64,000 nt of DNA from Desulfomonilia bacterium (GTDB lineage: Bacteria; Desulfobacterota; Desulfomonilia; UBA1062), in the NCBI GenBank assembly GCA_963664325.2, contig CAXXDQ010000007.1:576001-640000 (forward strand), written 5' to 3'. Position numbers and translations under genes: made by a program. Below, piece after piece: positions 29,130-49,989 of the stretch. Positions within the stretch are counted from its first letter, which is position 1. Each line of letters begins with the position of its first letter. The notes under the pieces are model-generated. The model was not told the DNA's origin and searched no databases. It saw only the letters and a list, made by a program, of their open reading frames with translations.

Positions 29130-30320
29130 ATGTCGAAATCAGATACTCCGCTTCTGGATGAACTCGAAGAAGGCAAATGGCCCAGTTTCGTCAAGGAAAT
29201 CAAGCAGGCAGCCAAAAAGAACCCCATGTCAGAAGATCTTCTCAAGCAGCTCGAACTCTCATACAAAGACAAGATCGGACACTGGAAGCATGGAGGCATA
29301 GTTGGCGTCAAGGGCTATGGCTCAGGCGTCATCGGCAGATATACCGACCGGCCCGATCTCTTCCCCAATGTACAGGCATTTCATACCATAAGAGTAAACC
29401 ATCCGGCCGGCTGGTTCTACAAAACCGATGCACTGAAAACCCTTTGCGATATATGGGATAAGCACGGCAGCGGGCTCACGAATCTTCATGGATCAACGGG
29501 AGACGCCATTCTTCTGGGAACGACAACCGATCACCTTCAGCCCTGTTTCAATGATCTGTCTGAGGCAGGCTTTGATCTCGGCGGTTCCGGTTCGGCACTC
29601 AGGACACCGAGCTGCTGCGTCGGACCGGGCCGCTGTGAATGGGCATGCGTCGACAGCCTTGATCTTTGTTACAATCTGACGATGAGCTTCCAGGATGAGA
29701 TCCACCGCCCAATGTTTCCATACAAGTTCAAGATCAAGATATCAGCATGTCCGAACGACTGTGTGGCATCTATTGCAAGGTCGGATTTCTCGATCATCGG
29801 AACCTGGAAAGGAAATATCGGCATCGATCAGACGGAAGTCAAGGCCTATGCCGAATCAGGACTGGATATTCAAAAGGAAGTCTTAAACCTGTGCCCGACC
29901 AGATGCATGGAATTAGAAGGTAATATACTGAAAATATACGATGAAGACTGCACCCGGTGCATGCACTGCATAAATATCATGCCAAAGGCGCTGAGACCCG
30001 GCGATGAACGGGGAGCAACCATCCTGGTCGGAGGAAAAGCCCCCATAGTCGAGGGTGCGCTCATGTCCTGGGTTCTTGTGCCATTCATGAAACTGGAACC
30101 TCCATACGACGAACTAAAAAATCTTATACTCAAGATACAGGACTGGTGGAGCGAAAACGGCAAGTCGCGCGAGAGGCTGGGTGAACTTATAAAAAGACTG
30201 GGAATGCGCCCGTTCCTCAAGGCAATGGATCTTCCAGCGGCTCCACAGATGGTCAAGGCCCCGAGGACAAACCCATATGTCTTTTTCTGGCCTGAAGACA
30301 TTCAGAAGGAGGAGAAGTGA
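29130..30320 (+). CDS. dsrA: Dissimilatory sulfite reductase alpha subunit
   Basis: [30 protein letters not shown], siroheme motifs [13 protein letters not shown] and CTRCMHC. Confidence 0.97.
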
Positions 30321-30321
30321 T

Positions 30322-31383
30322 ATGTCAACGGATATAGGGACCCCCGGATTTCAAATCCATGATCCCGCCAGTTGTTCAGAGGAATTACGGGAAATGGCGT
30401 TACCACGAAATTCCAAGACCCGGAGTTCTGGTCCATGTTTCAGAGTCGGGAGAAGAACTATATTCGGTAAGGGCAGGTTCACCGCGCCTTCTTTCAACTG
30501 ATACTATCCGTGAAATCTGTGAAATTGCCGATGCCTACTGCGAAGGATACCTCCGCTTCACAAGCCGGCATAACATAGAGTCCCTTCTTTCCGACAAGAG
30601 CAAGCTGGAACCACTCCTGGCTGAACTTCAGAAGAGGAACTACCCTGTCGGCGGAACAGGGACATTCCATATCGAACATCGTCCATACCCAGGGCTGGGT
30701 GCATTGCCACACGCCGGCCACTGACGCATCAGGCCCGGTAAAGGCGCTCATGGATGAGATTTATGAATATTTCGTAACCATGACGCTCCCGGCGCATGTC
30801 AGGATCGCGCTCGCCTGCTGCCTTAACATGTGCGGCGCCGTCCATTGTTCCGATATCGCCATTCTGGGCATACACCGTACTGTTCCCCAAACCTGACAAC
30901 TCGCGTGTTCCCAACATGTGCGAGATTCCGACCACTATCGCATCATGTCCAACAGGAGCCATCCGCGGTGACGTGAAGAACAAAACCGTCACCGTCAACG
31001 AAGAAAAGTGCATGTACTGCGGAAACTGCTATACAGTCTGCCCGGCCATGCCTATTGCAGATCCTGACAACGACGGAATATCAATCTGGGTGGGCGGCAA
31101 GGTGTCCAATGCACGCAGCAAACCGGCATTCTCAAAACTGGCCATCCCGTACCTTCCCAACAATCCGCCCAGGTGGCCTGAGGTTGTTGACGCGGTAAAA
31201 AATATCATCGAGGTATATGCATCTCATGCCAGAAAGCATGAGCGGATTGGCGAGTGGATTGAACGCGTGGGATGGGAGAGGTTCTTCAGCCTTACAGGCA
31301 TCCCGTTCACTGATATGCATATAGATGATTTCGACATGGCTACGGAAACATTCCATACATCCACTCAGTTTAAATGGAGGTAA
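30322..31383 (+). CDS. dsrB: Dissimilatory sulfite reductase beta subunit (three +1 frameshifts)
   Basis: Fragments read [37 protein letters not shown] and [12 protein letters not shown]. Extra bases sit at 30337-9 (G), 30659-61 (G) and 30885-8 (C). Confidence 0.93.
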
Positions 31384-34391: not shown

Positions 34392-35995
34392 TGAAGAAGC
34401 CGCTTGATATAAAAGAATTCAGCAGGCCCTCTGAACAGCTCGCCGAAATAGACCCGGCTGAACTGCTTGATCTGCCGGCCCCTTATGACAAGATCGACAA
34501 GCCGCCCATAAAAAAGCTTACGGATGACCAGAAGAAGCGCATGGACGCATCATTGGACGGCGTTGTGGCCGTAGGCCTTGCCCCCCCCAACAGTCCTGAA
34601 GAAGAGAAGGCCTTTGTTGAAAATTTTCTGGCAGGTCTCAATAAGCTCTTTTCCGATCAGGACAACTGGACATTCCTCCAGCCCCTGGTGCACACCTTGG
34701 AGTACTGCGTAAAGTGCCAGATATGCTCTGACGCCTGCCCTGCATACGTATCAAGCGGCCGCCAGGAAATTTACCGGCCCACTATGCGGCCGGAAATTCT
34801 CAGGAGGATTGTAAGTACATATATTAAAAAGGAACCGCGCCTATTGAGGAAATTCAAGTCCAGCGACATAGAGCTCAACTGGCAGACGCTCGCCCGCCTT
34901 GTCGAACTCGCCTACCGCTGCACGCTGTGCCGGCGTTGCGCACAGGTGTGTCTTCTGGGCTGCGATAATGCGCTTGTCACCCGCGAAATAAGGAAACTGT
35001 TCAGCCAGCAGATGGGGATCGCTCCTAAAGAAATTCATGAAAAGGGCTCAGTCCAACAGATCAGGGTCGGATCGAGCACGGGCATGACACCGCCTGCTCT
35101 TAAAAATATCCTCGAGTTCATTGAAGAAGAGATTGAAGAGAAGACCGGCCGCAAGATAAAGATACCAGTTGATAAAAAAGGCGCAGACATGCTGCTTCTG
35201 CATAATGCAGGAGAATTCATGGCATGGCCCGAGAATCTCGAGGCCTTCGCCATCCTTTTTGATGCGGCGGGCGTAGACTGGACCCTCTCCAGCGAACTGG
35301 CAGGATACGACGCAGTCAACTACGGCGTCTGGTATGATGATGTCCAGTTCGCACGCGTGGCACTGATACATGCAAAGGCTGCAAAAGCGCTCGGAGTCAG
35401 GAAGATATCCATGGGAGAATGCGGCCATGCGCATAAGGCTATGATTGTCATCGCAGACCGTATACTCACCGGGGATCTTAATATACCGCGCGAAAGCTGC
35501 CTTCCTCTAATGGAAGAGATCGTAACGAGCGGCCGGATCAAGTTTGACCCTTCGAGGAATGCATTTCCAATAACGCTGCACGACCCTTGCAATATGGTGA
35601 GACTGATGGGAATCGTTTCTCCGCAGCGCAAAATACTTTCAAAGATAAGCCCGGATTTCAGGGAAATGGCTCCGCATGGTGTTGAAAACTACTGCTGCGG
35701 CGGCGGAAGCGGATTTGCAATCACTCAGTCGACGAACTTCCCGGACTGGCGGTCATCTGTTTCAGGACGCATGAAAATGAAGCAGATACTCGAAGCCTTT
35801 AAGGACGTGCCCGAACCGGAAGTGAAAAAATATGTCTGCGCCCCCTGTTCAAACTGCAAGGGGCAGTTCAGGGATATGTTCGAATACTATGGAGCATGGG
35901 AAAAATCGGGCATCTTTTATGGAGGACTCGTGGAACTGATCGTCAACGCAATGGCCGACCTCGAAAAGCCCTTTATCCAGTGGGAGTGGCATTGA
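34391..35995 (+). CDS. Additional DsrK-like FeS oxidoreductase (HdrD/CCG domain)
   Basis: CVKCQICSDAC, CTLCRRCAQVC, GECGH, HDPCN, CCGGG and CSNC. Confidence 0.82.
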   Translation: MKKPLDIKEFSRPSEQLAEIDPAELLDLPAPYDKIDKPPIKKLTDDQKKRMDASLDGVVAVGLAPPNSPEEEKAFVENFLAGLNKLFSDQDNWTFLQPLVHTLEYCVKCQICSDACPAYVSSGRQEIYRPTMRPEILRRIVSTYIKKEPRLLRKFKSSDIELNWQTLARLVELAYRCTLCRRCAQVCLLGCDNALVTREIRKLFSQQMGIAPKEIHEKGSVQQIRVGSSTGMTPPALKNILEFIEEEIEEKTGRKIKIPVDKKGADMLLLHNAGEFMAWPENLEAFAILFDAAGVDWTLSSELAGYDAVNYGVWYDDVQFARVALIHAKAAKALGVRKISMGECGHAHKAMIVIADRILTGDLNIPRESCLPLMEEIVTSGRIKFDPSRNAFPITLHDPCNMVRLMGIVSPQRKILSKISPDFREMAPHGVENYCCGGGSGFAITQSTNFPDWRSSVSGRMKMKQILEAFKDVPEPEVKKYVCAPCSNCKGQFRDMFEYYGAWEKSGIFYGGLVELIVNAMADLEKPFIQWEWH

Positions 35996-36003
35996 GGAAT
36001 AGC

Positions 36004-36993
36004 ATGCATCTCACAGCAGCCGTTATCTCAATCCTTATACTGATGTTCCTGGCGGCGGCAGCCGCCTTGATCCCTTACCTTTCATGGCTGCTTGCGGCAA
36101 TCGTGGTCTATGCCGCATTTTTCTTCTTTCTTGCCGGGTTCGTATATCGTGTTATAAGGTGGGCGATCGTTCCCGTGCCGTTCAGGATCCCGGCCACCTG
36201 CGGGCAGCAGAAGTCGCTGACCTGGATCAATGCAAGCCCGATTGAGAATCCGTCAGGAAAGACCGGTGCCTTTTTAAGGATGGCCTCGGAAATCGTTTTT
36301 TTTCGCTCTCTTTTAAGGAATACGAGTACGGCGATGTACGAAAACCGGCCTGTTTATACAAGGGATATAATACTGTGGCTGTTCGGACTGCTCTTTCATG
36401 TATCCATGCTGATAATAGTAATAAGGCATTTGAGATTTTTCATGGAACCCGTTCCTGTTTTCATCAATACTCTTTCCGCATTGGACGGCATGTTTGAGCT
36501 GGGCGTTCCAACCCTTTATCTTTCGGACATCGTTTTTGCATTTTCGGCAATATACCTGTTCATACGCCGAGCTGCCGTTTCAAGGCTGCGGTATATATCG
36601 CTTGTCCAGGATTACTTTCCCATTCTTCTTCTTATCAGTGTGGCTGGCTCGGGAATACTGATGCGCCACATCTACAAGGTAGACCTTCTGAAGGTAAAAG
36701 AACTGGCAACCGGATGGACCAGTTTCTCAACAACGTTGCCTGAAGGGATAGGCCCGCTATTTTTTGTACACCTGTTCTGCGTATGCATGCTTTTTTTCTG
36801 GTTTCCCCTGGGAAAGCTCCTGCACATGGGCGGAATCTTTTTAAGTCCGACCCGAAACATGGCCAACAGCAACAGGGCATTCAGGCACCTCAACCCGTGG
36901 AATGCGCCCGTCAAGGTCCACACCTACGAAGAATACGAGGACGAATTCCGTGACAAGATAAAAGCGGCCGGGCTGCCGGTGGAAAAGGAGTAG
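36004..36993 (+). CDS. dsrM: DsrM membrane cytochrome b
   Basis: PVPFRIPATCGQQKSL, FHVS...RHLRFF, GKLLHMGGIFLSPTRN and EDEFR. Confidence 0.92.
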   Translation: MHLTAAVISILILMFLAAAAALIPYLSWLLAAIVVYAAFFFFLAGFVYRVIRWAIVPVPFRIPATCGQQKSLTWINASPIENPSGKTGAFLRMASEIVFFRSLLRNTSTAMYENRPVYTRDIILWLFGLLFHVSMLIIVIRHLRFFMEPVPVFINTLSALDGMFELGVPTLYLSDIVFAFSAIYLFIRRAAVSRLRYISLVQDYFPILLLISVAGSGILMRHIYKVDLLKVKELATGWTSFSTTLPEGIGPLFFVHLFCVCMLFFWFPLGKLLHMGGIFLSPTRNMANSNRAFRHLNPWNAPVKVHTYEEYEDEFRDKIKAAGLPVEKE

Positions 36994-36995
36994 AC

Positions 36996-38609
36996 GTGTC
37001 GTTCGCTAAAACACCCAAACCTGATGAACTGATAAGCATCAAATACGGCATGCCGAAGAAGCCATGGATGGACACGCCTGCGGACTTCAAGCCGGGTACA
37101 TGGAGCTATTCAGGCGCGGCAAAGAACCTTACGGCCCTCGATCTTCCCAATCCCAGGACATGGCAGCCTTCGGATGAAGACTGGAAGCTCCCTGAAAACT
37201 GGCAGTCAATCATACTTGAAGGAATGAAGGAACGGCTCGGAAAGTACAGGTCATTCAGACTGTTCATGGATATATGCGTTCGATGCGGGGCCTGCGCCGA
37301 CAAATGCCATTTCTTTATCGGCACCGGCGATCCGAAGAATATGCCGGTGCTGAGAGCAGAGCTTATCCGCTCTGTTTATCGCCGATATTTTACTGTTTCC
37401 GGAAGGGTCTTTGGCCGCTTAGCGGGTGCAAGAGACTTGACCGTCGACGTCTTGAAGGAGTGGTTCTATTATTTCTATCAATGCACGGAATGCCGACGCT
37501 GCGCCGTCTTCTGCCCTTTCGGCATAGACCAGGCCGAGATCACAATGATAGGCAGGGAACTTCTCAATCTGGTGGGCTGCAATATAAACTGGGTCGTAGA
37601 ACCCTCCGCAAACTGCTTCAGGACCGGAAACCATCTCGGCATACAGCCGGGCGGCATCAAGGACATGATTGAATTCTTGACAGATGATATCGCAGACCGG
37701 ACCGGTGTCCGGGTGGAAGTACCACTCAACAGAAAGGGTGCAGAAATCCTGTTCATAACTCCATCTGCAGACTATTTCGCCGACCCGGGCACATATACCT
37801 GCATGGGATATCTCATGCTCTTTCATGAGATAGGTCTTGACTACACGATGAGCACATACGCTTCCGAAGGAGGAAACTTCGGGCTCTTCACGTCGCATGA
37901 TATGATCAAGCGGCTCAATGCAAAGATATACGCTGAAGCAAAGCGCCTGGGCGTCAAATGGATACTTGGTGGCGAATGCGGCCACATGTGGAGGGTGGTC
38001 AACCAGTATATGGACACCATGAACGGACCGGCCGATTTTCTTGAAGTGCCTGTCTCACCCGCAACAGGGACGCGATTTGAAAACGCCCGATCCACAAAGA
38101 TGGTCCACATCTGCGAATTCACGGCAGACATAATCAAAAACGGCAAAATCAGACTCGACCCTTCGAGAAACGGCCATCTGAAGATTACATTCCACGACTC
38201 CTGCAATCCTTCGCGGGCCATGGGTCTCTTCGATGAGCCGCGCTATATCATCAATAATGCATGCAACAATTTTTTTGAAATGCGTGAGGATGCCATTAGG
38301 GAAAAAACATTCTGCTGCGGTGCAGGCGCCGGGCTAGGCAATGAAGAGAATATGGAGATGAGGATGCGCGGCGGCATGCCCAGGGCAATGGCCGTAAAGG
38401 AAGTACGCGAGAAATATGGCGTCAACCGCCTGGCCTGCATATGCGCCGTTGACCGGGCTACACTCCCTCCTCTGATGGAATACTGGGTTCCCGATGTCTC
38501 AGTCATGGGCGTTCACGAACTGCTGGGCAACGCCCTTGTCATGGAAGGCGAAAATGAACGGCTTACCGACCTCAGGGGAGATCCCATTAAGGAGACAGAG
38601 GCGTCATGA
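36996..38609 (+). CDS. dsrK: DsrK
   Basis: CVRCGACADKC, CTECRRC, GGECGHMWR, HDSCN and CCGAG. Confidence 0.93.
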   Translation: MSFAKTPKPDELISIKYGMPKKPWMDTPADFKPGTWSYSGAAKNLTALDLPNPRTWQPSDEDWKLPENWQSIILEGMKERLGKYRSFRLFMDICVRCGACADKCHFFIGTGDPKNMPVLRAELIRSVYRRYFTVSGRVFGRLAGARDLTVDVLKEWFYYFYQCTECRRCAVFCPFGIDQAEITMIGRELLNLVGCNINWVVEPSANCFRTGNHLGIQPGGIKDMIEFLTDDIADRTGVRVEVPLNRKGAEILFITPSADYFADPGTYTCMGYLMLFHEIGLDYTMSTYASEGGNFGLFTSHDMIKRLNAKIYAEAKRLGVKWILGGECGHMWRVVNQYMDTMNGPADFLEVPVSPATGTRFENARSTKMVHICEFTADIIKNGKIRLDPSRNGHLKITFHDSCNPSRAMGLFDEPRYIINNACNNFFEMREDAIREKTFCCGAGAGLGNEENMEMRMRGGMPRAMAVKEVREKYGVNRLACICAVDRATLPPLMEYWVPDVSVMGVHELLGNALVMEGENERLTDLRGDPIKETEAS

Positions 38610-39049
38610 AGCCAAAGCCTGGAACAATTATAGGCGTTTCTATCGGCATAGCTGTATTCGTCCTCATTGCGGCCTTTCCCTTCTGGTATGGCGGCTTTAA
38701 ACCCAAGGCCGCCCCGGATATAGATCTCAATACACCTGAAATAAACTCACTTTCCGAAAAGCAGTGCGTGGCTTCCACAGCTTACATGAAGACAGAACAT
38801 ATGAGGCTCCTCAATCAGTGGCGCAACGATGTCGTGCGCAACAACGACCGGACTTATACAGCACCCGACGGACGGCGGTTCGACAAAAGCCTCACAAAGA
38901 CTTGTCTTGCATGCCACACCAACAAGGAGCGGTTCTGCAACCGCTGCCACAATTATGCCGGCGCCAATCCCAAATGCTGGGACTGCCATTCCGAAACGGC
39001 TTCCTCGGCTGCGAGAAAGGCGATAAAATTCAGGGAAAAGGTGAACTGA
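38606..39049 (+). CDS. dsrJ: DsrJ triheme cytochrome c
   Basis: Three CxxCH motifs (CLACH, CNRCH, CWDCH) and HMRLLNQWR. Confidence 0.93.
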   Translation: MKPKPGTIIGVSIGIAVFVLIAAFPFWYGGFKPKAAPDIDLNTPEINSLSEKQCVASTAYMKTEHMRLLNQWRNDVVRNNDRTYTAPDGRRFDKSLTKTCLACHTNKERFCNRCHNYAGANPKCWDCHSETASSAARKAIKFREKVN

Positions 39050-39050
39050 C

Positions 39051-39818
39051 ATGGTGGACATTAAACGCAGACTGATATTGAAGGCCGCCGGGATATCCGC
39101 TCTCGGCACCATTATTCCGCCTGTCGGGTATCTGATCTCTGCGCATGCAAAGGAAGTCATGTCGAAACAGGCAGCACCGTCTGCAAAACGGTGGGCCATG
39201 CTGGTTGACATCTCGAAGTGTCCGGCAGGATGCAGAGGTTGCATCGATGCCTGTCACGGCATCCACAATGTGCCGTCAATAAACGAGCCCGGACAGGAAA
39301 TAAGATGGATACAGAAGGTGCCATTCTCAAACGCCTTCCCTTCGCAGGAAAACCCCTACTCGGACGTATCCATTAAGAAAAGGGAAACCGTGGTCATGTG
39401 CAACCACTGCAGTAATCCTCCCTGCGTACGTGTCTGCCCGACACAGGCCACGTTCAAGCGCAGTGACGGCATAGTCATGATGGACTATCACAGGTGCATA
39501 GGCTGCAGGTTCTGCATAGCGGCCTGCCCTTACGGCGCAAGGAGCATGAATTTCAGAAACCCCCGGCCGTATATCGGAAGCATAAACCCGGACTTCCCTA
39601 CAAGGACCAAAGGCGTGGTCGAAAAATGCAACTTCTGCGAGGAGCGCCTCGCCAGGAATCTCCTGCCCGCATGCGAGCAAGCATGCAAATACAAGGCCCT
39701 CATATTCGGAGACCTGCTGGCGGGAAAATCGGAAATCAAAACGATACTTGAGAACAGCAATGCGTTCAGGCGCAGACCCGAACTCGGAACAGAACCTCAC
39801 GTATTCTACATAGGATGA
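39051..39818 (+). CDS. dsrO: DsrO periplasmic FeS protein
   Basis: Tat-like KRR signal, CNHCSNPPCVRVCP, CIGCRFCIAACP and KCNFC. Confidence 0.93.
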   Translation: MVDIKRRLILKAAGISALGTIIPPVGYLISAHAKEVMSKQAAPSAKRWAMLVDISKCPAGCRGCIDACHGIHNVPSINEPGQEIRWIQKVPFSNAFPSQENPYSDVSIKKRETVVMCNHCSNPPCVRVCPTQATFKRSDGIVMMDYHRCIGCRFCIAACPYGARSMNFRNPRPYIGSINPDFPTRTKGVVEKCNFCEERLARNLLPACEQACKYKALIFGDLLAGKSEIKTILENSNAFRRRPELGTEPHVFYIG

Positions 39819-39831
39819 AAAGCGAGCTACA

Positions 39832-41019
39832 ATGACTGATCCCACAGATAAAAACAGGATCACAGGCCGTATCTGGCTGGTTTTTCTGATTGCTGTCATG
39901 GCGGTCGGAGGGTTCTTCTATCTGCGCCAGTTGAACATGGGCTTAAGCATTACCGGCATGAACCAGAACGTGACCTGGGGCCTCTATATCTCCCAGTTCA
40001 CATTTCTCGTAGGCATCGCAGCTTCAGCAGTAATGCTCATACTTCCCTATTATCTCCATGATCACAAAGTATTCGGCCGGATTACGCTGTTAGGAGAATT
40101 CCTCGCCGTCTCCGCTGTCATGATGTCCGTCACTTTTGTTATAGTCGATCTCGGACGTCCTGACCGCGCATTCAACATGATCCTTCACCCATCCCCCAAG
40201 TCTATTCTTTTCTGGGATATGATCGTGCTGTCAGGCTATCTGATAATCAACCTCATCATCGGATGGACGGTTCTGGAGTGCGAGCGAAAGGGAACGCCTC
40301 CCCCGTCATGGGTCAAACCGCTAATATACCTGTCAATTCCCTGGGCCATAAGCATACATACCGTAACAGCCTTCATATACGCGGGCCTGCCTGCAAGGAC
40401 CTTCTGGCTTACGGCTGTCATGGCGCCCCGCTTCCTGGCGTCGGCGTTCGCATCAGGCCCTGCCCTTCTCGTACTCCTGTGCCTGATTCTTCGCCGATAT
40501 ACCTCATTTGATGCAGGCAGAGAACCCCTTCAGACACTGGCGAAGATTATCGCCTATGCCCTTGCGACAAGCATCTTTTTCGTCCTTGTGGAAATCTTCA
40601 CGGCCTTCTACAGCGGCATTCCATCCTATAAGGAGCATTACCAGTATCTGTTCAGAGGTATTGACGGCCATATGACCCTTGTCCCCTGGATGTGGGCATC
40701 GGTCGTCCTGGCATTCACAGCACTTATCTTTCTTGTCATTCCCGCAACCAGACGGAATGAAAAGTGGCTTATGTCAGCCTGTATCGCAGTATTCATATCG
40801 CTGTGGATTGAAAAGGGCCTGGGTCTTGTTATTCCAGGATTCATTCCATCACCGCTTGGAGATGTTGGAACATACGTCCCCACAATGCCGGAAATTGCAA
40901 TCACTCTCGGAGTCTGGGCCGGAGGCCTCTTTGTTCTGACCCTCTTGTACAGGCTGTTTGTTGCAGTCAAGGCGCAGCATGTCAAGGCTGCTCTGTGGTT
41001 AAATTATTGGGGAGAATGA
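39832..41019 (+). CDS. dsrP: DsrP (NrfD family membrane protein)
   Basis: WGLYISQFTFLVG, DLGRPDR and HTVTAF; about 10 TM helices. Confidence 0.93.
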   Translation: MTDPTDKNRITGRIWLVFLIAVMAVGGFFYLRQLNMGLSITGMNQNVTWGLYISQFTFLVGIAASAVMLILPYYLHDHKVFGRITLLGEFLAVSAVMMSVTFVIVDLGRPDRAFNMILHPSPKSILFWDMIVLSGYLIINLIIGWTVLECERKGTPPPSWVKPLIYLSIPWAISIHTVTAFIYAGLPARTFWLTAVMAPRFLASAFASGPALLVLLCLILRRYTSFDAGREPLQTLAKIIAYALATSIFFVLVEIFTAFYSGIPSYKEHYQYLFRGIDGHMTLVPWMWASVVLAFTALIFLVIPATRRNEKWLMSACIAVFISLWIEKGLGLVIPGFIPSPLGDVGTYVPTMPEIAITLGVWAGGLFVLTLLYRLFVAVKAQHVKAALWLNYWGE

Positions 41020-41022
41020 AAC

Positions 41023-42249
41023 ATGAAAATACTGACCCTGAACTGCGGCAGCTCATCAATCAAATTCAAGATTTTTTCAATGCCTAAAGGCTCTGCTCTT
41101 ATAAAAGGGCAGGCTGACCGTATAGGACTGGATGATGCAAAAATACAATGGGAAGGCGAAGAGATCAAACATTGCAGCATCAGTTATAAACTTCACAGCC
41201 ACAAAGAGGCGCTCGAAATATTGCTCGGACTCAGGACGGCGGGAGGCGAAAAATCCCCTGTAAACACCGGTGACATAGCGGCTGTTGGGCATCGCGTTGT
41301 ACACGGTGGGGAGTTTTTCCACTCGTCAGTCGCCATCACCCCTGCCATACGCAGAACTCTGGAAGGCTGCAGAAATCTCGCCCCGCTGCATAATCCACAC
41401 AACCTCACAGGAATTGACGTCTGCGCAGCACTTATCCCGGATGTACCGCAGGTAGCGGTTTTTGATACGGCCTTTCACCAGAGCCTTCCTGATTTCGCAT
41501 ATACCTATGCCGTACCATACAGATTTTACGAGGAAAACCGAATCAGGAAATACGGATTTCATGGAACTTCGCATAGATATGTCGCAGAACGCGCAGCACA
41601 GATCCTGGGCAGGGACATTAAACAGCTTAGAATCATCACCGCGCACCTCGGCAACGGATCAAGCCTTTGTGCAGTTGGAAACGGGAAATCATGCGACACA
41701 TCGATGGGTTTCACACCGCTTTCAGGCGTTGTCATGGGAACCAGATGCGGTGACATTGATCCCGCATTCGTAGCCTATCTTATTAAAAATATGAACTTAC
41801 CCCTTGAAGAAGCAATGCGCATACTCAATTATGAAAGCGGAGTACTGGGGATTTCGGGCCTTTCATCGGATTTCAGGGACCTTTTTTCAGCTGCGGAAAC
41901 GGGCCATCAACGGGCGGCTCTTGCACTTAACGTCTTCGCATACAGTGTGGCAAGAGGGATCGGGTCTTTAATCCCTTCCATTAACGGCCTTGATGTTCTC
42001 GTGTTCACCGCTGGCATCGGCGAAAATTCTTATCAGATGCGCCAACTGATCTGCGGTTATCTGTCATGGCTGGGTATCTGTCTGGACCCGGCCAAGAACA
42101 TACAGGGAACGCCGGAACGAGATGTTTCCAGTCCTGAAACACAGGTACGGGTCCTCGTCATACCCACGGACGAGGAAAAAATAATTGCACAGGAAACCAT
42201 GAGCATCCTCACAAATGGAGGACAGCCAACATGTCAGGATGGATTTTGA
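41023..42249 (+). CDS. ackA: Acetate kinase
   Basis: LNCGSSSIK, GHRVVHGG, DTAFH, HLGNGSS, FTAGIGEN and PTDEE. Confidence 0.96.
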   Translation: MKILTLNCGSSSIKFKIFSMPKGSALIKGQADRIGLDDAKIQWEGEEIKHCSISYKLHSHKEALEILLGLRTAGGEKSPVNTGDIAAVGHRVVHGGEFFHSSVAITPAIRRTLEGCRNLAPLHNPHNLTGIDVCAALIPDVPQVAVFDTAFHQSLPDFAYTYAVPYRFYEENRIRKYGFHGTSHRYVAERAAQILGRDIKQLRIITAHLGNGSSLCAVGNGKSCDTSMGFTPLSGVVMGTRCGDIDPAFVAYLIKNMNLPLEEAMRILNYESGVLGISGLSSDFRDLFSAAETGHQRAALALNVFAYSVARGIGSLIPSINGLDVLVFTAGIGENSYQMRQLICGYLSWLGICLDPAKNIQGTPERDVSSPETQVRVLVIPTDEEKIIAQETMSILTNGGQPTCQDGF

Positions 42250-42310: not shown

Positions 42311-44050
42311 ATGAAAAAAGTTAAGATGACACCCAGCGAAGCAATTGTCGAAACACTGCTGGCCGAAGGTGTGGATCATGTATGCGGCATTGTGGGATCA
42401 GCCTTTATGGACATGCTGGACCTTTTCCCTGCAGCTGGAATAAAATTCTATCCTGTACGCCATGAACAGAGCGCAGCACACATGGAAGACGCATATTCCC
42501 GTATCACCGGGCGTGCCGGCGTCGTTACCGGCCAGAATGGGCCAGGCATCACCAATATGGTTACATCGGTAGCTGCAGCGAATATGGGACATACACCCCT
42601 TGTAGTCATCTCTCCGTCAGCAGGAACGCCTACAATCGGCTGGGACGGATTCCAGGAATGCGACCAGCTATCAGTATTCAAGGCCATTACCAAGGCTACA
42701 GTCCGCGTACCTCATCCCAAAAGGGCCGCCGACTGTCTGAGGACGGCGTTCAGGATTGCATATGCCGAAAGAGGCCCGGTGCTTTATGACATCCCAAGGG
42801 ATTATTTCTACGGAGAACTTGAAGAGACCATTTTGAAGCCGTCACAGTACAGAGTGGATGCCCGCGGATGCGGCTCAATCGAAAGCTTGGACAAGGCTGC
42901 CCAGCTTCTTTCAAAGGCGAAGAATCCGGTCATCGTTTCAGGCCGCGGCGTGGTCGACTCCAACGGACTTGATGTAATCAAAGCGATCGCCGAGCATCTT
43001 ACTGCACCAGTTGCCGTCACCTATCTTCACAACGACGCATTCTACGGCAATCATCCGATGTTCCTTGGTTCGATAGGATATATGGGATCAAAGGCGGCCA
43101 TGAAGACGCTCTCCAAGGCCGACGTAGTGCTTGCAGTCGGAACGCGCCTTTCGGTTTTCGGGACCCTGCCCCAGTATGACATCAATTATTTCCCGGATGC
43201 GGCAAAAATAATCCAGATCGACATCAACCCGCGCCACATAGCACGCACCCATCCGATTGAAGTGGGCATAATAGGCGATGCTAAGGAGGCGAGCTCTGAA
43301 ATTCTCAAACGGCTGAAAGCTTTGAACAAGGGACGCAAACCTGACGTCAAAAGGCTTGCCGCAATCGCCAAGGAAAAAGACATATGGGAAAAGGAAATCG
43401 TCAAGCTGGCCATGGTGAAGGGAAACCCCATCAACCCGAGAAGGGTTCTGCTCGAGATATCAAAGGCGCTGCCCAAAGACTGTATAGTGACGACCGACAT
43501 CGGCAACGTTTCATCAACGGCCAACAGCTATCTTAAATTCAACGGCGGACGCCAGCATATTGCGGCTCTTACCTTCGGTAACACCGGGTTCGCTTACCCG
43601 GCTGCTCTTGGCGCACAGATCGCAAAACCGAAATCGCCGGTCATCGCCATCATCGGAGATGGTGCCTGGGGCATGAGCCTTCACGAGGTAAGCACTGCCG
43701 TGGAACACAACCTGCCTGTCGTCGCATGCGTGTTCAGGAACACGTGGTGGGGGGCTGAGGCGAAAAACCAGATCGATTTTTATAACAACCGTTTCATAGG
43801 GGTTGACATCCCCAATCCGGAGAGCTTCGCGCCTGTTGCACAGGCAATGGGAGCCCAGGGAGTGCGCGTTGAGCGCGCCGAAGACATTAAGGATGCATTC
43901 CTCTCATGCATCAAGAGCCGCAAGCCTACAGTCCTCGAGTTCGTTGTCGACGGCATGCAGCTCGCCCCTCCGTTCAGAAAGGACGCACTGGCCCTGCCGA
44001 CAAGGTTCCTCAAAAAGTACGACTATCTCGATTACAGAAACTGGGATTGA
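42311..44050 (+). CDS. xsc: Sulfoacetaldehyde acetyltransferase (ThDP-dependent)
   Basis: [52 protein letters not shown] and PPFRKDAL are typical of Xsc. Confidence 0.92.
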
Positions 44051-44143: not shown

Positions 44144-46039
44144 TTATTCTTCCGTTACGCCTTTTAATATGCCTGGCTCGTCCGTCATTATGGCCTCGAC
44201 CTTCTTGTCATTGATGAGAGAGCGCATTGTTGCAGCGTCGTTTATTGTCCATGCATGGACCTTGAGCCCCAGATATCTGGCCTTTAGCATGAAAGGATCG
44301 TTTATGACGGTCACGTTGAGACCGCCGAGCGCAAACTCCAGCGGGACCTGCAGGACCTTTGCAGGCGGCTCGTATTTGCTGGCAAGCATCACGGAAAGCG
44401 GGGTCAGGAAGAAGCTGATGATCTCGGCCTGGCTGAATGATGTGATTACGTCAAGGCCTTTCAGCTCTATCTCATTTCTAACATCTGCAAGGGCAGCTGA
44501 ATCGAACGATTCGATGATGACATGATCCTTGATTCCGTGTGCATCTATCATATCGAGCAGCTTGTCCGACAGCCCCTCGTCGAGCTGCTTTATCTCGATT
44601 ACGCCAGGCGAATTCATAAGCGCAGGTTCATTGAGCACCTCTTCGAGGGTCGGTATCTGTATCCCATGTCCGCGGTAAGGGTATGACGCGCCACCGTCGG
44701 TTGTGAACCGGTAACCCGCATCCAGCTCCTTGACCTCGGCAAGCGTCATGTCATTAATGCTTCCCGTTCCGTCAGTACACCTGTCCACAGTCGTATCGTG
44801 TGAAACGACTATGTATCCGTCTTTGGTAAGCTGAAGGTCGAGTTCGTAACCGTCAGCGCCTTCGGCTATGCCGTTACGGAATGCCTCAAGCGTGTTTTCA
44901 GGCCTCAGGTCCGACCCGCCCCTGTGTGCGATGTTGAGGAACCCTGTGTCATTGCGCAGATATGTGTTGGTGACCGTGTCGCCTGAAGCTATGTCAGCCA
45001 TAACCTGCGACCAGTCCCAGGCAATGCTGTCGGGAGTGATGAAGTCGAATCCCTGTGTGTCAAGATCTTTCATCGGATTCAGGAAATAATTGACCTTGAA
45101 CGGGATGTAGAAAATCCTGTTCGCAATGGCGCCGTAGCCGTCTTCATGCGGTGTATCGCCCACCATAGCCAGGACCTTGCCGTCACCGTAAAGTTTCTTT
45201 ATTGTGCCTAGAGCGGCAGCCTTATATTCGTTGGTTTCAGCATAAGGAAGATCACTTTTTACAATGATGGGAATTGTCCTCAGGGTGCCCGCCTCGAAGT
45301 GATTTATCATCTGCTGCCTGCACAGCGCCCTGGTTTCGAGCGGCATGCCCGTGACAATAATGAAGTCTTTGCCTTCATCGCGAAGCTTTTTTACAGAAGG
45401 TACGACATACTCGTCAACAAGCGGCCAGTCGCCCTTGGTGAAGTTGAGGAAGTTTATGACATCGGTGATGCTGTTAAGCCCGCCGGTCGCGTGCAGGGTG
45501 TTATCATGATCCGAGACGACAATCTGCGGATTGGGCCTCGGGATACTGTCGAGATTCAATTCCACGCATAAAGAATTCTGGCTTCCCAGAACCCTGACAA
45601 GCCCCATGGTGTCAGAAACCGTTTTCCCGCCGGAGAACAGCACGTCAGCCCTGAGCTGGAGGTCAAGAGGCGCAGAGCAGAGAGCAAACCCCGTCAGCCA
45701 TTTTCTCAGGCCGTCAAGGGAGGCCTTTCCTTTGCTGTCTGTTATGACCGGCGCATCACCCAGTTGTATCCAGGCATCATCACCCGAACCGACAGGCCGG
45801 GCATAAAACTGAACCTGCATGCCGCTCAGTTTCTTGCCAAGGATAAACTTGAAGAAGGACTGCTTGTCCTTTTGTTCGATCTGATAGACCGTGGCATTGG
45901 GTGCGATTTCCGGTTCAGTGCTGTCACCGTTGCTGGTGATGCCGTCCGATACTACAATCTCTGTATTCTCAGGCGTCGGCAGACATCCCGAAATAATAAT
46001 GATGATTGTTAGAGACAGATAGATAAACAGTTTCTTCAT
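44144..46039 (-). CDS. Lipoprotein: HAD-type phosphatase domain fused to glycerophosphodiester phosphodiesterase
   Basis: Lipobox ISGC; HAD motifs SDHDNTL, VTG and VGDTPHED; GDPD motifs IAHRGG.....ENTL, ELDL, SHD and WTIND. Confidence 0.8.
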   Translation of the reverse strand: MKKLFIYLSLTIIIIISGCLPTPENTEIVVSDGITSNGDSTEPEIAPNATVYQIEQKDKQSFFKFILGKKLSGMQVQFYARPVGSGDDAWIQLGDAPVITDSKGKASLDGLRKWLTGFALCSAPLDLQLRADVLFSGGKTVSDTMGLVRVLGSQNSLCVELNLDSIPRPNPQIVVSDHDNTLHATGGLNSITDVINFLNFTKGDWPLVDEYVVPSVKKLRDEGKDFIIVTGMPLETRALCRQQMINHFEAGTLRTIPIIVKSDLPYAETNEYKAAALGTIKKLYGDGKVLAMVGDTPHEDGYGAIANRIFYIPFKVNYFLNPMKDLDTQGFDFITPDSIAWDWSQVMADIASGDTVTNTYLRNDTGFLNIAHRGGSDLRPENTLEAFRNGIAEGADGYELDLQLTKDGYIVVSHDTTVDRCTDGTGSINDMTLAEVKELDAGYRFTTDGGASYPYRGHGIQIPTLEEVLNEPALMNSPGVIEIKQLDEGLSDKLLDMIDAHGIKDHVIIESFDSAALADVRNEIELKGLDVITSFSQAEIISFFLTPLSVMLASKYEPPAKVLQVPLEFALGGLNVTVINDPFMLKARYLGLKVHAWTINDAATMRSLINDKKVEAIMTDEPGILKGVTEE

Positions 46040-46260
46040 AAACCCTCCTCAAATATAAAGTTTTACAGAAATGCTGCAAATTAAATACCATATATCTTGG
46101 CTTTTTTACAGCAATTTTTCATATATGAATTAATATCATGTTAAGAAGGTTTTATAAAAATCCATCGGGTTAATCATCGATCTTTAAAAATCTCAGAAAT
46201 GGCGAGATTTCAACCATGCTCAGAATATGGCCAAGCCCGGCCAATTCTCTGGATTATGTT

Positions 46261-47619
46261 TTATTCAACTTCGGCGTCTGCAACGAGCAGCGCCTTGTCA
46301 AATACCTCCACTGCAAAGTCGATTTCGTCCTTTGTAATGGTAAGGGGCGGCGCGAACATGATCACGCTTGCCACACCGGGCAGGCAGTAGACGCCGTTTT
46401 TCATCGCCTCGGCAAGCACCTTCATCTTGGCAGTAAGAGGTCTCGGCCCTTCGAACAGCATTTCATGCATCGGTTCTTTGGTTCTCCTGTTCTTGACAAG
46501 TTCAAGTCCGACAAAAAGCCCTTTGCCGCGGACGTCGCCGACACACGGATGTTTATCCATAAGTTCAAGCGCCTTTTCCATCAGGTATTCGCCCATTTTT
46601 GCGGCACGCTCTATCAGTCTGTCCTCCTTATAAGCCTCAATGGTTGCAACACCCGCTGCCATGGCAAGGGCATGGCCGCTGTACGTATGTCCGTGTACAT
46701 ATGGAACTTCTTCAAAAATTTTTGAATATTTTTCACTTACGCTTGTCGCACCCAGCGGTACATAACCTGATGTTATGCCTTTTGCCATGGTTATGACATC
46801 GGGAACCACATTCCAGTGCTCAATTGCAAACCATCTGCCGGTACGGCCGAAACCGACCATTACTTCATCCACCATCATTAGCATTTCATATTTGTCGCAG
46901 ATTTCACGTATCTTCTGCCAGTACCCGTCGGGCGGTACGATTATCCCGTTTGCCCCGACCACCGGTTCCGCGATAAAAGCTGCAATCCTTTTGGCGCCGC
47001 CCTCGAACCTGATGACATCCTCGACATGTTTTGCGCACTGCAGGTCGCAACCCGGATAGGTGATTCCAAAAGGACAGCGGTAACAGTAAGGGTCAAGACA
47101 GTGGACAACCCCGGGAATGGCAGGTTCGGTCGACCAGTTCCTGAAATCGTTTGTCAGCGCCATGGCCCCGTAAGTGGAACCGTGATAGCTCCTGAACCGG
47201 GCAATTATCTTCTGCTTGCCTGTTGCAAACCTGGCAACCTTTATGGCACCTTCATTCGCCTCGGCCCCGCTTGTTGAAAAAAAGGTCTTTTTAATGTCGC
47301 CGGGCGTCACCTCCGCAATCAGCCTTGCAAGTCTGGCCTTCGGCTCTGTGGCAAAAGAAGACGAGCACGCGGGCAGCCTTTCCGCCTGAGCCGAAATGGC
47401 CTTTACCACTCGGGGATCGGCATGTCCCAGATTGCTGAATACGAACATGGAGCTGAAATCCAGGTATTTTTTATCCGACGAATCCCAGAAATAATTACCG
47501 GATGCCCTGTCCACAATAACCGGGGTTACAGCCTTCTGGGCGACCCATGGATAAAGGACGTTCTCTTTTTCATATTTTCTTATGGCATCCGCATCAAGTC
47601 TTTCTTTAAATTCTGCCAT
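46261..47619 (-). CDS. Class III PLP aminotransferase, taurine transaminase (Toa/Tpa)-like
   Basis: YLDFSS, SGAEANE, RSYHGST, DEVMVGFGRTG, MAKG, and an N-terminal 'VLYPWVAQ' resembling taurine:2-oxoglutarate transaminases. Substrate is inferred. Confidence 0.8.
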   Translation of the reverse strand: MAEFKERLDADAIRKYEKENVLYPWVAQKAVTPVIVDRASGNYFWDSSDKKYLDFSSMFVFSNLGHADPRVVKAISAQAERLPACSSSFATEPKARLARLIAEVTPGDIKKTFFSTSGAEANEGAIKVARFATGKQKIIARFRSYHGSTYGAMALTNDFRNWSTEPAIPGVVHCLDPYCYRCPFGITYPGCDLQCAKHVEDVIRFEGGAKRIAAFIAEPVVGANGIIVPPDGYWQKIREICDKYEMLMMVDEVMVGFGRTGRWFAIEHWNVVPDVITMAKGITSGYVPLGATSVSEKYSKIFEEVPYVHGHTYSGHALAMAAGVATIEAYKEDRLIERAAKMGEYLMEKALELMDKHPCVGDVRGKGLFVGLELVKNRRTKEPMHEMLFEGPRPLTAKMKVLAEAMKNGVYCLPGVASVIMFAPPLTITKDEIDFAVEVFDKALLVADAEVE

Positions 47620-47625
47620 GAAATT

Positions 47626-49053
47626 CTAACTCCTTTTGATTCTTCTAATTATTTTAAGTACGACCGGTGTAGCCTTATCGATCAATGTCTGCTTTGAAGG
47701 ATCACTTTCAAGAGACGGCATCTTGCACTCAGGCCCATAGAGACCGAGCATCATTTTCATGACCTCGTTTTTGATAAGCTTCCTGAAAGGGATATTCGCT
47801 ATCATTCCATACATGGCCGCATTGCCCTTTACCGCCAGTTCGGGATGCGCCCTTACATGCTTCACTGCATCCGCAAGATCCTTCAGATAGACATCCGTTA
47901 TAGTTGAATGCCTCGGCGTAACCATGCAGTGAAGCGCGTTGGGATTCTGCAGCCTGTCGATAAGCCAGCCCTTTTCCTCCAGCATATCGCCCACGGCAAA
48001 TATATCCAAGTCCCTGTCAGTCGAGGTATAAGCAAAGACGCTCATCGCAGGCTTCCCGAGGACCTTGAGCCCGGGGATTGCCTCAACGCCTTTTTTAAGC
48101 TTAACAGTCGTTTCCATAATTGTTGCTGCTATAGCCTTATAGCCGTCAATTCCAAGCGCATTCATAGCCGCCCAGGCAGCTGCAATCGCTCCGCCGGGAC
48201 GCGTGCCGAGCATTGCAGGTGATGCAAACACCCCGCCCGGCCAGTCCGCGAATATGAAAAACTGGTGTTTCATATAGTTCATATCTTTATAAAGCAGTAC
48301 CGATGAGCCTTTTGCGCTGAAACCATACTTGTGGGAATCAGCCGATATCGAGGTTACACCCGGGACCCTGAAATCAAAAGGGTCGACATGCAGACCATTC
48401 ATTTCGATGAACGGAAGGAGGAACCCTCCCAGACAGGAGTCCACATGAAGAGGTATGTCATGTCTGAGAGCAATCTCTCCGAGTTCGTATATGGGATCAA
48501 TCACGCCATGGGGATATGAAGGCGCAGAACTCACGATCATGATTGTATTTCTGTTAATAAGCCTTTCCACCGCTTTTGCATCAACCCTCAGGTCTTTCCC
48601 CAGCGGGGCATGCACCATCTTGATACCGAAATATTTCGCAGCCTTTTCCCATGCGACGTGTATTGACACAGGCGCAATCATCTCAGGCCTGAACGGCAGG
48701 TAACGTTTTGATTTTGCATATTCACGGTATGTAACTACCGGGAGCAGGCAGCTCTCGGTGCCGCCCGAAGTCATGGTGCCGACAACCTTTTCATCACCGT
48801 TCAGAAGATTGGCCGCCATCTTGACAACCTCGGTTTCCATGCGCTTGAGGCTTTTGAATGCAATCGGATTGAGGGCGTTTTCGCTGAAATACATGCCATA
48901 GGCCTGCTTGAGAAAATCCGTATGTTCGTCACTCAGGTAGTAAACCAGGCTCCAGGTTTTGTTTTCGCGGAAGTTTGCATCTTCACCACTGAATCCCTTG
49001 AGCATTTCAAGAACCTTAGGCCTCTCGATGCCATGCTGCGGAATCCTGTCCAT
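47626..49053 (-). CDS. Sphingosine-1-phosphate lyase-like PLP enzyme
   Basis: TSGGTES, SAPSYPHGVIDPI, HVDSCLGGF, SISADSHKYG and GGVFASP..GTRPGG match the SPL/Dpl1 subfamily. Confidence 0.85.
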   Translation of the reverse strand: MDRIPQHGIERPKVLEMLKGFSGEDANFRENKTWSLVYYLSDEHTDFLKQAYGMYFSENALNPIAFKSLKRMETEVVKMAANLLNGDEKVVGTMTSGGTESCLLPVVTYREYAKSKRYLPFRPEMIAPVSIHVAWEKAAKYFGIKMVHAPLGKDLRVDAKAVERLINRNTIMIVSSAPSYPHGVIDPIYELGEIALRHDIPLHVDSCLGGFLLPFIEMNGLHVDPFDFRVPGVTSISADSHKYGFSAKGSSVLLYKDMNYMKHQFFIFADWPGGVFASPAMLGTRPGGAIAAAWAAMNALGIDGYKAIAATIMETTVKLKKGVEAIPGLKVLGKPAMSVFAYTSTDRDLDIFAVGDMLEEKGWLIDRLQNPNALHCMVTPRHSTITDVYLKDLADAVKHVRAHPELAVKGNAAMYGMIANIPFRKLIKNEVMKMMLGLYGPECKMPSLESDPSKQTLIDKATPVVLKIIRRIKRS

Positions 49054-49178
49054 ATCATCCCCCTAATGCCTAACCGGCCGATTTTATATGGTTTCAAAAA
49101 GGTGTTTTTGTTTAATCATACGGCTCAGCCTTTGTCCATAGTTTAATCTCGATATAATCCCGCAATTTGTGTTTATAA

Positions 49179-49220: not shown

Positions 49221-49248
49221 TTTTATAAACAATAAAAGGAGGCTCGGC

Positions 49249-49989
49249 ATGAAACACACAAGAAAGATTATCACTATCGACGAGGAAAAGTGTAACGGCT
49301 GCGGCCAGTGCTGCCTGGCATGCGCAGAAGGCGCTCTCAGGCTTGTCGACGGCAAAGCGAAACTCGTGGGTGATATATTTTGCGACGGACTTGGCGCATG
49401 CATCGGCGAATGTCCGGAAGGGGCATTAAAGATTATCAACAGGCCCGCTGATGACTTTGATGAAAAATCCGTCAGGCAGATGCAGAATATAAAAGCCGAA
49501 GATAAAAAACCCGAGGCTTTAGCCTGTGGGTGTCCATCGTCGGCCATGATGGAACTGAAGAAGACCCCGTGCCGTGAAGACATTGAGCCTGCAGGGGCAG
49601 CGGCCAGCCGGCTCGGGCACTGGCCGGTAAAACTCCAGCTCCTGGGCCCGCAGGCGCCGTTCTTGAAAAATAGCGACCTGGTGCTGCTGGCCGACTGCGT
49701 TGCAGTTGCATATCCATACCTGCACGGAAAGATACTGAAAGACCGCACCATTGCGATAGGCTGCCCCAAACTTGACAATATAGAAGCACACGTTGACAGA
49801 CTTGCACAGATTCTTAAAGGGGCCCGCCCGAAAAGCCTGACAGTAGTTCATATGGAAGTCCCGTGCTGCAGCGGGTTCCTCCATGCAGCAATCGAGGCCA
49901 TTGAGCGTTCCGGCGTGAAGATTCCCCTTAGGAAGATTATTATCAGCCGAAGTGGTGAAATACTGGCAGATGAAGAGCTCGCTCTTTAA
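49249..49989 (+). CDS. 2x[4Fe-4S] ferredoxin-domain iron-sulfur protein
   Basis: CNGCGQCCLAC, CDGLGACIGECP, GCPS, WPVKL, GCPKLD and MEVPCC. Confidence 0.85.
   Translation: MKHTRKIITIDEEKCNGCGQCCLACAEGALRLVDGKAKLVGDIFCDGLGACIGECPEGALKIINRPADDFDEKSVRQMQNIKAEDKKPEALACGCPSSAMMELKKTPCREDIEPAGAAASRLGHWPVKLQLLGPQAPFLKNSDLVLLADCVAVAYPYLHGKILKDRTIAIGCPKLDNIEAHVDRLAQILKGARPKSLTVVHMEVPCCSGFLHAAIEAIERSGVKIPLRKIIISRSGEILADEELAL

Follow-up and report, generated by a model that had tools for sequence, protein, structure and literature searches.

A homologue of sphingosine-1-phosphate lyase (SPL), hereafter SPLh, is encoded directly beside a taurine-transaminase-like aminotransferase in a 64,000-nucleotide stretch of DNA (the window; forward-strand positions 576,001 to 640,000 of contig CAXXDQ010000007.1, assembly GCA_963664325.2) from a Desulfomonilia bacterium. 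What is new here is a specificity class within the SPL family, a large subclass that we call N-type, wired into the known taurine pathway. Comparative genomics gives good support to the link with taurine genes, and capnine (a 2-amino-3-hydroxyalkane-1-sulfonate) is a plausible but unproven substrate with serious rivals. We consider it rather probable that the aminotransferase receives taurine, or a closely similar aminosulfonate, from SPLh, because the two genes are coupled across 6 nucleotides, because three classes of aminotransferase found beside SPLh are each tied to sulfoacetaldehyde acetyltransferase (Xsc), and because three cluster architectures show the link.

Sequence and fold comparisons place SPLh as a genuine member of the SPL family, in agreement with a sequence-only reading of the window that had located its open reading frame (ORF) correctly and assigned it to this group of pyridoxal 5'-phosphate (PLP) enzymes. 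The ten best distinct PDB sequences found with phmmer were all sphingosine-1-phosphate (S1P) lyases (E 1.8e-115 to 5e-65). At E 1e-113 to 1e-115, SPLh shares fold and family with the Symbiobacterium thermophilum enzyme (StSPL; PDB 3MAD/3MAU, 5.3e-115) and human SGPL1 (4Q6R, 2e-113), both EC 4.1.2.27; lyases of Burkholderia (2.3e-99), yeast (5e-92) and Legionella (5e-65) followed. Decarboxylases were far behind, with the L-tyrosine/L-aspartate decarboxylase MfnA (group II; PDB 3F9T, 6JY1) the nearest such family at 3.8e-33 and glutamate decarboxylases at 1e-21 to 1e-26 (GadB 2e-21). A Foldseek search with an AlphaFold2 model of SPLh (mean confidence score, pLDDT, 76) returned SPLs at ranks 1–22, at 42–44% identity, and MfnA, which has the same fold, from rank 24 at 26%. 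SPLh also scored under the curated cut-offs for MfnA (TIGR03812, 250.6 versus 299.4 bits) and glutamate decarboxylase (TIGR01788, 134.9 versus 380.4 bits), and the ESM Atlas gave solely generic "PLP-dependent decarboxylase / aminotransferase family" clusters.

Within this family, SPLh probably keeps the catalytic apparatus and the tail channel of classical SPLs while its head-group site has been rebuilt. The available portions of two reports (PMC10243590; PMC6148460) describe K311 of StSPL as binding PLP, Y482 as guarding substrate entry, and Y105, A103 and K317, together with N126, H129 and S353 of the other subunit, as contacting the phosphate of substrate or product. The PLP-binding and catalytic set of SPLh, comprising K242, D205, H132, C207, H241, K248, Y38 and Y415 (StSPL K311, D274, H201, C276, H310, K317, Y105 and Y482), is kept in more than 90% of both classical and N-type proteins and belongs to 48 positions that are more than 90% identical in both classes; N126 is retained as N59. 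The only three positions at which StSPL and its inhibitor-binding "surrogate" differ in our alignments are hydrophobic in both classes (Y180, V275 and A277 in SPLh). The other phosphate contacts differ: A103 is replaced by L36, H129 by N62 and S353 by T284. With P127 replaced by A60, the NPLHP motif of StSPL aligns with NALNP at residues 59–63 of SPLh (SENALNP at 57–63), as the sequence-only reading had noticed. StSPL S101 is Trp in SPLh, an Asn is replaced by D366, and R367 is new.

These changes extend across a class. In an alignment of 84 sequences (80 clade members at 56–78% identity and four distant homologues), Leu stood at A103 in 79, Asn at H129 in 79 and Thr at S353 in 81. A search of 1.84 billion cluster representatives supplied a wider sample: of its best 150, we typed the 136 that were at least 400 residues long. 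The classical pocket ([A/T/V]Y..N-P-L-H..S) was present in 56, 35 were N-type ([L/Y]Y..N-[A/G]-L-N-P..T), and 10 had a third pattern, GY..NALYP, with Arg at position 367 (among P0244–P0393). Among the N-type proteins, H129 was Asn and A103 was Leu, Tyr or Phe in 35/35, S101 was Phe or Trp in 34/35 and S353 was Thr in 27/35, with Asp or Glu replacing Asn at 366 and a new Arg at 367, variable in classical proteins, in 31/35 each. The best class-separating positions, in SPLh numbering, were 62 (H to N), 34 (S to F/W), 36 (A/T to L/Y), 366 (N to D/E) and 367 (variable to R), followed by 377, 60 (P to A/G), 64 (D to T/M) and 284 (S to T). As judged from these alignments, the head-group pocket underwent a coordinated, class-wide remodelling and not a single substitution. 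The pocket loops themselves (residues 26–39 and 57–65) had pLDDT below 50 in the AlphaFold2 monomer. R367 was also considered as a counterpart of MfnA R371 and provisionally set aside, as alignment offsets put R371 at L374/H375; our literature search found no paper on MfnA R371.

The gene downstream of SPLh likely encodes a taurine aminotransferase, as judged by homology. Its product (Aminotran_3, 1.4e-99) exceeded the cut-off of NCBIfam PRK06062 (504.9 versus 472 bits), its best PDB match was the taurine:2-oxoglutarate aminotransferase 6JIX (1.6e-97; next match 8.8e-82), and proteins 70–95% identical to it carry the automatic JGI name "taurine--2-oxoglutarate transaminase". Both the 6-nucleotide spacing and the resemblance to taurine transaminases had been noted in the sequence-only reading, as had the proximity of the pair to xsc-ackA-dsr, which we measured as 2.2 kb, with Xsc, AckA and DsrM, DsrK, DsrJ, DsrO and DsrP all above their cut-offs. 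The Shine-Dalgarno sequence of the aminotransferase gene, AAGGAG, lies within the final codons of SPLh, an arrangement that points to a shared transcript and to translational coupling of the pair. This tight coupling is not universal even inside the genus, since in two genomes a 7.4-kb block encoding two Condensation-domain proteins, two MFS (major facilitator superfamily) transporters and one PGA_cap protein separates the genes (G002, L015 2775–10030; G001, L016 2076–9336).

Genes of taurine and sulfoacetaldehyde metabolism are coupled to SPLh repeatedly, in gene orders independent of one another. Class III aminotransferases beside SPLh fall into three classes that are mutually 36–51% identical: class A (75–91% within class) in the window and its genus, G437 and L166; class B (71–79%) in L043/L047 (G009/G042); and class C (68–70%) in L186/L158/L039 and L183. 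Class A occurs with Xsc in the window and in G437. Classes B and C have their Xsc partners at loci that have no SPLh, class B in L148, where xsc and the aminotransferase gene overlap by 11 nucleotides (Xsc 765 bits versus a cut-off of 676), and class C directly beside Xsc in L110 (918 bits). Elsewhere in the phylum, class A orthologues stand beside NitT/TauT-type ABC transporter genes in six loci, encoding an SsuA/TauA-like binding protein (below cut-offs), a TauC-like permease and an ATPase, and class B stands beside a TRAP system, whose genes were found in two loci. In Desulfobacula (L090, L184 and L188) a 389-residue "aminotransferase" is encoded three genes away from SPLh; as it is only 23–27% identical to the others, it was dropped as an aminotransferase link.

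Two further cluster types also connect SPLh with taurine-type genes. In G437, nine genes on one strand (L153, G437:C35, 120–16089) encode, in order, a GntR regulator, an aminotransferase 76% identical to that of the window, a DAO+GCV_T protein, an Amidohydro_3 protein, an MFS transporter, Xsc, a second Amidohydro_3 protein, a PPDK_N-like protein of 1006 residues and an SPLh at 70% identity, the last two genes overlapping by 4 nucleotides at the SPLh start. The cluster looks like an island for taurine conjugates, possibly N-methyl- or N-acyl-taurines, and a cluster of the same type with frameshifts is present in G434. The DAO+GCV_T protein is of the sarcosine/dimethylglycine-dehydrogenase type. 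In the metagenome loci L186 and L158 the order is DUF819, SPLh, GntR, class C aminotransferase, alanine dehydrogenase, MFS, Amidohydro_3 (77% identical to the one in G437), SpoU, an iron-type alcohol dehydrogenase and a DegT-type aminotransferase. Taurine dissimilation classically employs an aminotransferase paired with alanine dehydrogenase (Tpa/Ald), and iron-type alcohol dehydrogenases act as sulfoacetaldehyde reductases.

The SPLh clade is large. At E <1e-30, 7989 of 8000 candidates scored were homologous proteins, and 450 stretches were confirmed in one-genome-per-species contigs. Members occur in metagenome-assembled genomes (MAGs) labelled Desulfobacterota/Deltaproteobacteria, Syntrophaceae/Smithella, Desulfobacula, Syntrophomonadaceae/Bacillota, Neomarinimicrobiota, Myxococcota, Spirochaetota and others. 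For the survey of neighbours, ORFs were called and clustered in the window, one relative and the best 80 of the 450 loci, and an SPLh ORF was recovered in 79 of these 82 sources. A FastTree phylogeny of 92 sequences placed the SPLh of the window in a 15-row clade (support 99) that mixes DUF819-linked, aminotransferase-linked and Xsc-cluster members, and the aminotransferase-linked pair from G009 and G042 in a different clade. As aminotransferase-linked members are scattered in the tree, the association arose or was kept in several branches with the same pocket signature. Among 41 genomes of the family and class of the window, all six with an aminotransferase orthologue (E <=1e-100) belonged to the 11 with SPLh at E <=1e-176. 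Xsc was present in 6 of 12 genomes of the 15-row clade versus 5 of 38 other SPLh genomes.

Our proposal for the chemistry is more tentative than the taurine link. SPLh would cleave the C2–C3 bond of a capnine-type base to give taurine and a fatty aldehyde, perhaps after an amidohydrolase has removed the N-acyl chain of the sulfonolipid. The translationally coupled, Toa-like aminotransferase would convert taurine to sulfoacetaldehyde, Xsc would turn this into acetyl phosphate and sulfite, AckA would recover ATP from acetyl phosphate, and DsrAB, DsrC and DsrMKJOP would reduce sulfite to sulfide. That SPLh is a retro-aldol lyase yielding taurine from such a long-chain base is, taken as a whole statement, a possibility that we hold with some doubt. 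We prefer it because the SPL E-values lie far beyond those of MfnA and SPL-specific residues and channel positions are retained, because FadD-like and aldehyde:ferredoxin oxidoreductase (AOR) neighbours would handle a fatty aldehyde, because Amidohydro_3 proteins in two clusters could deacylate N-acyl capnine, and because a cationic amphipathic tail resembles a peripheral membrane anchor. In seven Marinimicrobia-labelled loci a FadD-like AMP-binding enzyme (an acyl-CoA synthetase) and DUF1761 are encoded directly downstream of SPLh, TetR regulators recur nearby, and in two genera a DASS transporter, AOR and an Oxc/HACL-like thiamine pyrophosphate (TPP) enzyme lie convergent near SPLh.

The tail itself is poorly conserved in sequence. 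It is present in 61 of 79 clade members, 50 of which have a net charge of at least +3 there (residues ~450–475 of SPLh), its median best helical hydrophobic moment is 0.63 versus 0.44 for shuffles, and in SPLh a cationic, amphipathic helix is predicted by AlphaFold2 at 457–474. The 18 tail-less short forms, mostly labelled Bacillota/Syntrophomonadaceae, end directly after ...YGPEMKMPY. On the model, the tail may be a peripheral membrane anchor or membrane-targeting helix that replaces the missing N-terminal one; together with the FadD-like neighbour and the nearby AOR it hints at a lipid substrate. C-terminal extensions of two long N-type representatives (P0262, 1187 residues; P0247, 627 residues) were set aside as a functional clue, as they had no PDB match. 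The sequence-only reading had found no sphingosine kinase in the window. Across the whole genome, which is 95.6% complete, we likewise found no match to the sphingosine-kinase family DAGK_cat above cut-off (best 20.4 versus 23.6 bits), which counts in favour of the capnine reading.

Several observations weigh against capnine or against the taurine link. The commonest neighbour of SPLh was a DUF819 membrane protein (380 residues), found in 40 of 79 loci (directly upstream in 39, downstream in one) and in 21 of 33 metagenome loci, often with no other relevant genes nearby. This is a layout typical of small-solute systems. Classical SPLs have an N-terminal extension of ~67 residues that SPLh does not; residue 3 of SPLh aligns with StSPL chain position 70, and short N-type representatives begin at alignment positions 2–10. 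A small, soluble, acidic substrate would fit the stand-alone DUF819 pairs, the lack of a membrane segment at the N-terminus, and the transporters of GltS-like and DASS type in G009. Within the genus of the window no transporter for any substrate adjoins SPLh, and the genome of the window had no DUF819 gene. Xsc exceeded its cut-off in only 11 of 50 SPLh genomes and was absent in 39 (29 further loci lie outside this count), and an aminotransferase orthologue (E <=1e-120) was present in 6 of the 50. Co-localisation of SPLh homologues with sulfonate genes recurs in independent layouts and is not the commonest context. Of 17 further genomes with class A or B aminotransferase orthologues, one had Xsc, so the taurine assignment of the aminotransferase is not secure and its substrate range may be broader. 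The PPDK_N-like protein of G437 is possibly a kinase or phosphotransferase, which would suit a phosphorylated substrate. Many or most loci come from MAGs, and genomes of one lineage are not independent. Moreover, the available portion of PMC6148460 describes a Burkholderia pseudomallei lyase, S1PL2021 (PDB 5K1R), that like SPLh has no His at H129 (it has Gln82), comes from an organism without sphingolipid synthesis, and cleaves S1P. The NALNP motif alone, which the sequence-only reading had contrasted with the NPLHP implicated in phosphate binding, is therefore not decisive, and the weight rests on the coordinated set of changes; S1PL2021 differs from SPLh in keeping Ser at S353 and having Thr at A103 (PMC6148460, same portion), and of the two lyases StSPL is the closer to SPLh.

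The stand-alone DUF819-SPLh pairs are best explained if SPLh is a decarboxylase of L-cysteate (or L-cysteine sulfinate), which would remove CO2 and supply taurine to the aminotransferase and Xsc; this explains the taurine-gene contexts too, and we judge it unlikely without dismissing it. DUF819 would import cysteate or exchange it for taurine, in the manner of the decarboxylase/antiporter pairs that build a proton motive force, and in the available text of PMC8396727 DUF819 is treated among the CPA/AT transporters, movers of ions, amino acids and other charged compounds. The sister family MfnA would be a precedent: its PDB entry names make it a decarboxylase of aspartate, which has a carboxylate where cysteate has the sulfonate. 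SPLh has no N-terminal membrane segment, and its bulkier pocket residues would fit a head group one atom shorter than a phosphate ester. Opposed to this are the retained SPL-specific K317, Y482 and channel positions, the score below the MfnA cut-off, and the FadD-like and AOR neighbours and amphipathic tail, which cysteate leaves unexplained. By offset count, moreover, the position aligned with MfnA R371 is His375 or a neighbour in both SPL classes. To our knowledge, no decarboxylase is known within the SPL clade. Such a route would also be new, since the only cysteate routes named in the available part of PMC11193023 are SuyAB and CuyA. The same retained residues count against a decarboxylase of aspartate (to beta-alanine) or glutamate (to 4-aminobutyrate), with an omega-aminotransferase using the product and xsc nearby by coincidence. 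We regard this reading as improbable, although GltS-like and DASS transporters occur together with AOR and a class III aminotransferase at the G009 locus, and although in G298 and G373 a related aminotransferase (45–48% identical) has AbfD-like and acyl-CoA dehydrogenase genes as neighbours. The aspartate decarboxylase PanD (PF02261) was found in 0 of 25 genomes of the family of the window versus 16 of 16 of the sister family, which counts for this reading; about ten of the 25, however, have neither PanD nor an SPL-family homologue (best E no better than 1e-4). With no complementary pattern of PanD and SPLh, a housekeeping role in aspartate decarboxylation was rejected, and SPLh is not the general source of beta-alanine in the family. 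The aminotransferases beside it, furthermore, belong to the classes tied to Xsc, Ald and TauABC-type transporters.

Closest to known chemistry is an ordinary sphingoid-base-1-phosphate lyase that forms phosphoethanolamine and a fatty aldehyde, the aminotransferase acting on phosphoethanolamine or on another substrate. The sequence-only reading had offered this alternative with a phosphoethanolamine phospho-lyase as partner; it is weakened by the settings in which the aminotransferases occur, with Xsc, alanine dehydrogenase or TauABC-type genes, and we retain it as a rival with a low chance of being right. The catalytic set is complete, a natural lyase with Gln at H129 exists (PMC6148460, available portion), the FadD-like, AOR and TetR neighbours fit, the putative PPDK_N-like kinase is coupled to SPLh in G437, and the lipoprotein with a GDPD domain encoded next to the pair could free phosphorylated lipid heads. 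That lipoprotein gene, however, is not conserved with SPLh even in the genus, no DAGK_cat kinase was found in the genome, and a coordinated pocket change throughout a class speaks against an unchanged head group. Classical NPLH-type SPLs also coexist with SPLh in the same bacterial family (L026 and L027), and the three aminotransferase classes that recur beside SPLh are each linked to Xsc elsewhere. SPL chemistry on a soluble sulfonate that needs a transporter is offered by cysteinolate (2-amino-3-hydroxypropane-1-sulfonate), which would give taurine and formaldehyde with DUF819 as the importer; this we think very improbable. Cysteinolate is abundant in marine settings according to the available part of PMC12814064, but the clade is common in MAGs labelled as coming from digesters and groundwater, we saw no genes for handling formaldehyde, SPLh retains the hydrophobic positions of the channel, and the route that the same part describes for sulfate and sulfite reducers is CuyC, HpsN and CuyA (PMC12814064).

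Returning to the capnine lyase, its relation to established pathways is one of similarity downstream and difference at the entry step. Known taurine dissimilation modules of Bilophila, Desulfonispora and Bifidobacterium use Toa, or Tpa with Ald, followed by Xsc with Pta/AckA or by sulfoacetaldehyde reductase with IslAB. The aminotransferase described here has Toa as its nearest relative of solved structure, Xsc and AckA are encoded adjacent to dsr, and L186 has the aminotransferase-Ald pair and the iron-type alcohol dehydrogenase. The difference is an SPL-family gene where, in other genomes with the same aminotransferase, a TauABC-type or TRAP transporter stands; a tblastn search of the genome of the window found no TauABC-like genes. 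Compared with SPLs, the genomic partners of SPLh are a DUF819 transporter or taurine-catabolic genes and not sphingolipid genes. In a literature search that left most subscription journals outside it, we found no paper on an SPL-type enzyme in sulfonate metabolism or on a sulfonolipid catabolic lyase.

Features of the window that bear on this system are listed in Table 1.

Table 1. Genes and intergenic spacer of the SPLh locus, with window coordinates
Feature	Position	Strand	Details
SPLh (P0001), SPL-family PLP enzyme, N-type subclass	47626..49053	-	475 aa
Spacer between SPLh and aminotransferase	47620..47625	-	6 nt
Class III aminotransferase (P0002), class A, Toa-like	46261..47619	-	452 aa
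Lipoprotein with C-terminal GDPD domain	44144..46039	-	631 aa; signal peptide with Cys (lipobox)
Xsc, sulfoacetaldehyde acetyltransferase	42311..44050	+	TIGR03457 833.2 bits versus cut-off 676.4
AckA, acetate kinase (acetyl phosphate to ATP)	41023..42249	+	above cut-off
dsrM, dsrK, dsrJ, dsrO, dsrP	35896..41019	+	each over NCBIfam cut-off; co-directional with ackA-xsc
dsrA (intact) and dsrB	29130..31383	+	
2x[4Fe-4S] protein, divergent from SPLh	49249..49989	+	246 aa

Converging on the SPLh-aminotransferase pair, the plus strand carries dsrA, dsrB, a cobB-like dsrN, dsrC, a DsrK-like gene, dsrMKJOP, ackA and xsc. The divergent protein has an N-terminal 2x[4Fe-4S] domain and a C-terminal part of ~180 residues that received no assignment; all four genomes of the genus encode it upstream of SPLh, as a conserved neighbour. 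A scan of 43900–49400 was uninformative: it gave four promoter-like sites where 6.4 were expected and three terminator-like sites where 5.8 were expected, and the minus strand had no terminator-like site. The GDPD lipoprotein gene, which the sequence-only reading had not mentioned, lies between the aminotransferase gene and xsc and is separated from the aminotransferase by a 221-nucleotide AT-rich gap and has its own Shine-Dalgarno sequence. Its product combines ~170 N-terminal residues that received no assignment, a DxDxT HAD-like middle and the GDPD domain; the best NCBIfam match was a lysophosphatidylglycerol phospholipase D, below cut-off, and PDB matches include a lysoplasmalogen-specific enzyme. 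By homology it may be an extracytoplasmic lipid-head-group phosphodiesterase or phosphatase. The gene is present in the window genome and in G003, partial in G001, absent between xsc and the aminotransferase in G002, and absent from every other SPLh locus examined. Given this patchy distribution it was rejected as a member of the pathway and is a probable bystander.

Other observations concern the sulfite-reduction genes and a gene farther downstream. In at least three lineages, represented by the window (35896–44050), L154 (G439) and L155 (G443), the dsrMKJOP operon is extended by xsc, with ackA included in the window and G443 and not in G439. This arrangement places sulfite production and the electron-transfer complex of sulfite reduction in one transcription unit. 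Next to the intact dsrA (29130–30320), dsrB (30359–31383, plus strand) is spread over three frames, TIGR02066 positions 1–98, 101–174 and 154–341 falling in ORFs 30359–30724, 30579–30896 and 30796–31383; the breaks reflect either a double frameshift in dsrB itself or erroneous indels in the assembly. A TPP enzyme with IolD/ALS-like matches (54703–56359, plus strand) is split into overlapping frames (54697–55542 and 55430–56359) and is a single ORF of 617 residues in two genomes of the genus (L015 17780–19633; L017 17453–19306), an apparent second frameshift in the window.

Bacteroidota sulfonolipids are abundant in guts, sediments and digesters. If SPLh frees taurine from capnine, turnover of these membrane lipids would be linked to sulfite respiration and H2S formation, the head group feeding sulfite respiration and the tail feeding beta-oxidation in anoxic habitats. 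A function would thereby be given to a very large orphan branch of the SPL family, to which about one in four of the representatives examined belongs. If SPLh instead decarboxylates cysteate, it would represent a third, undescribed cysteate route, possibly one that conserves energy by antiport with DUF819. We tentatively propose that the N-type subclass comprises lyases for sulfonated sphingoid bases, capnine and its relatives, which together with amidohydrolase, aminotransferase and Xsc might constitute the first described catabolic route for bacterial sulfonolipids.

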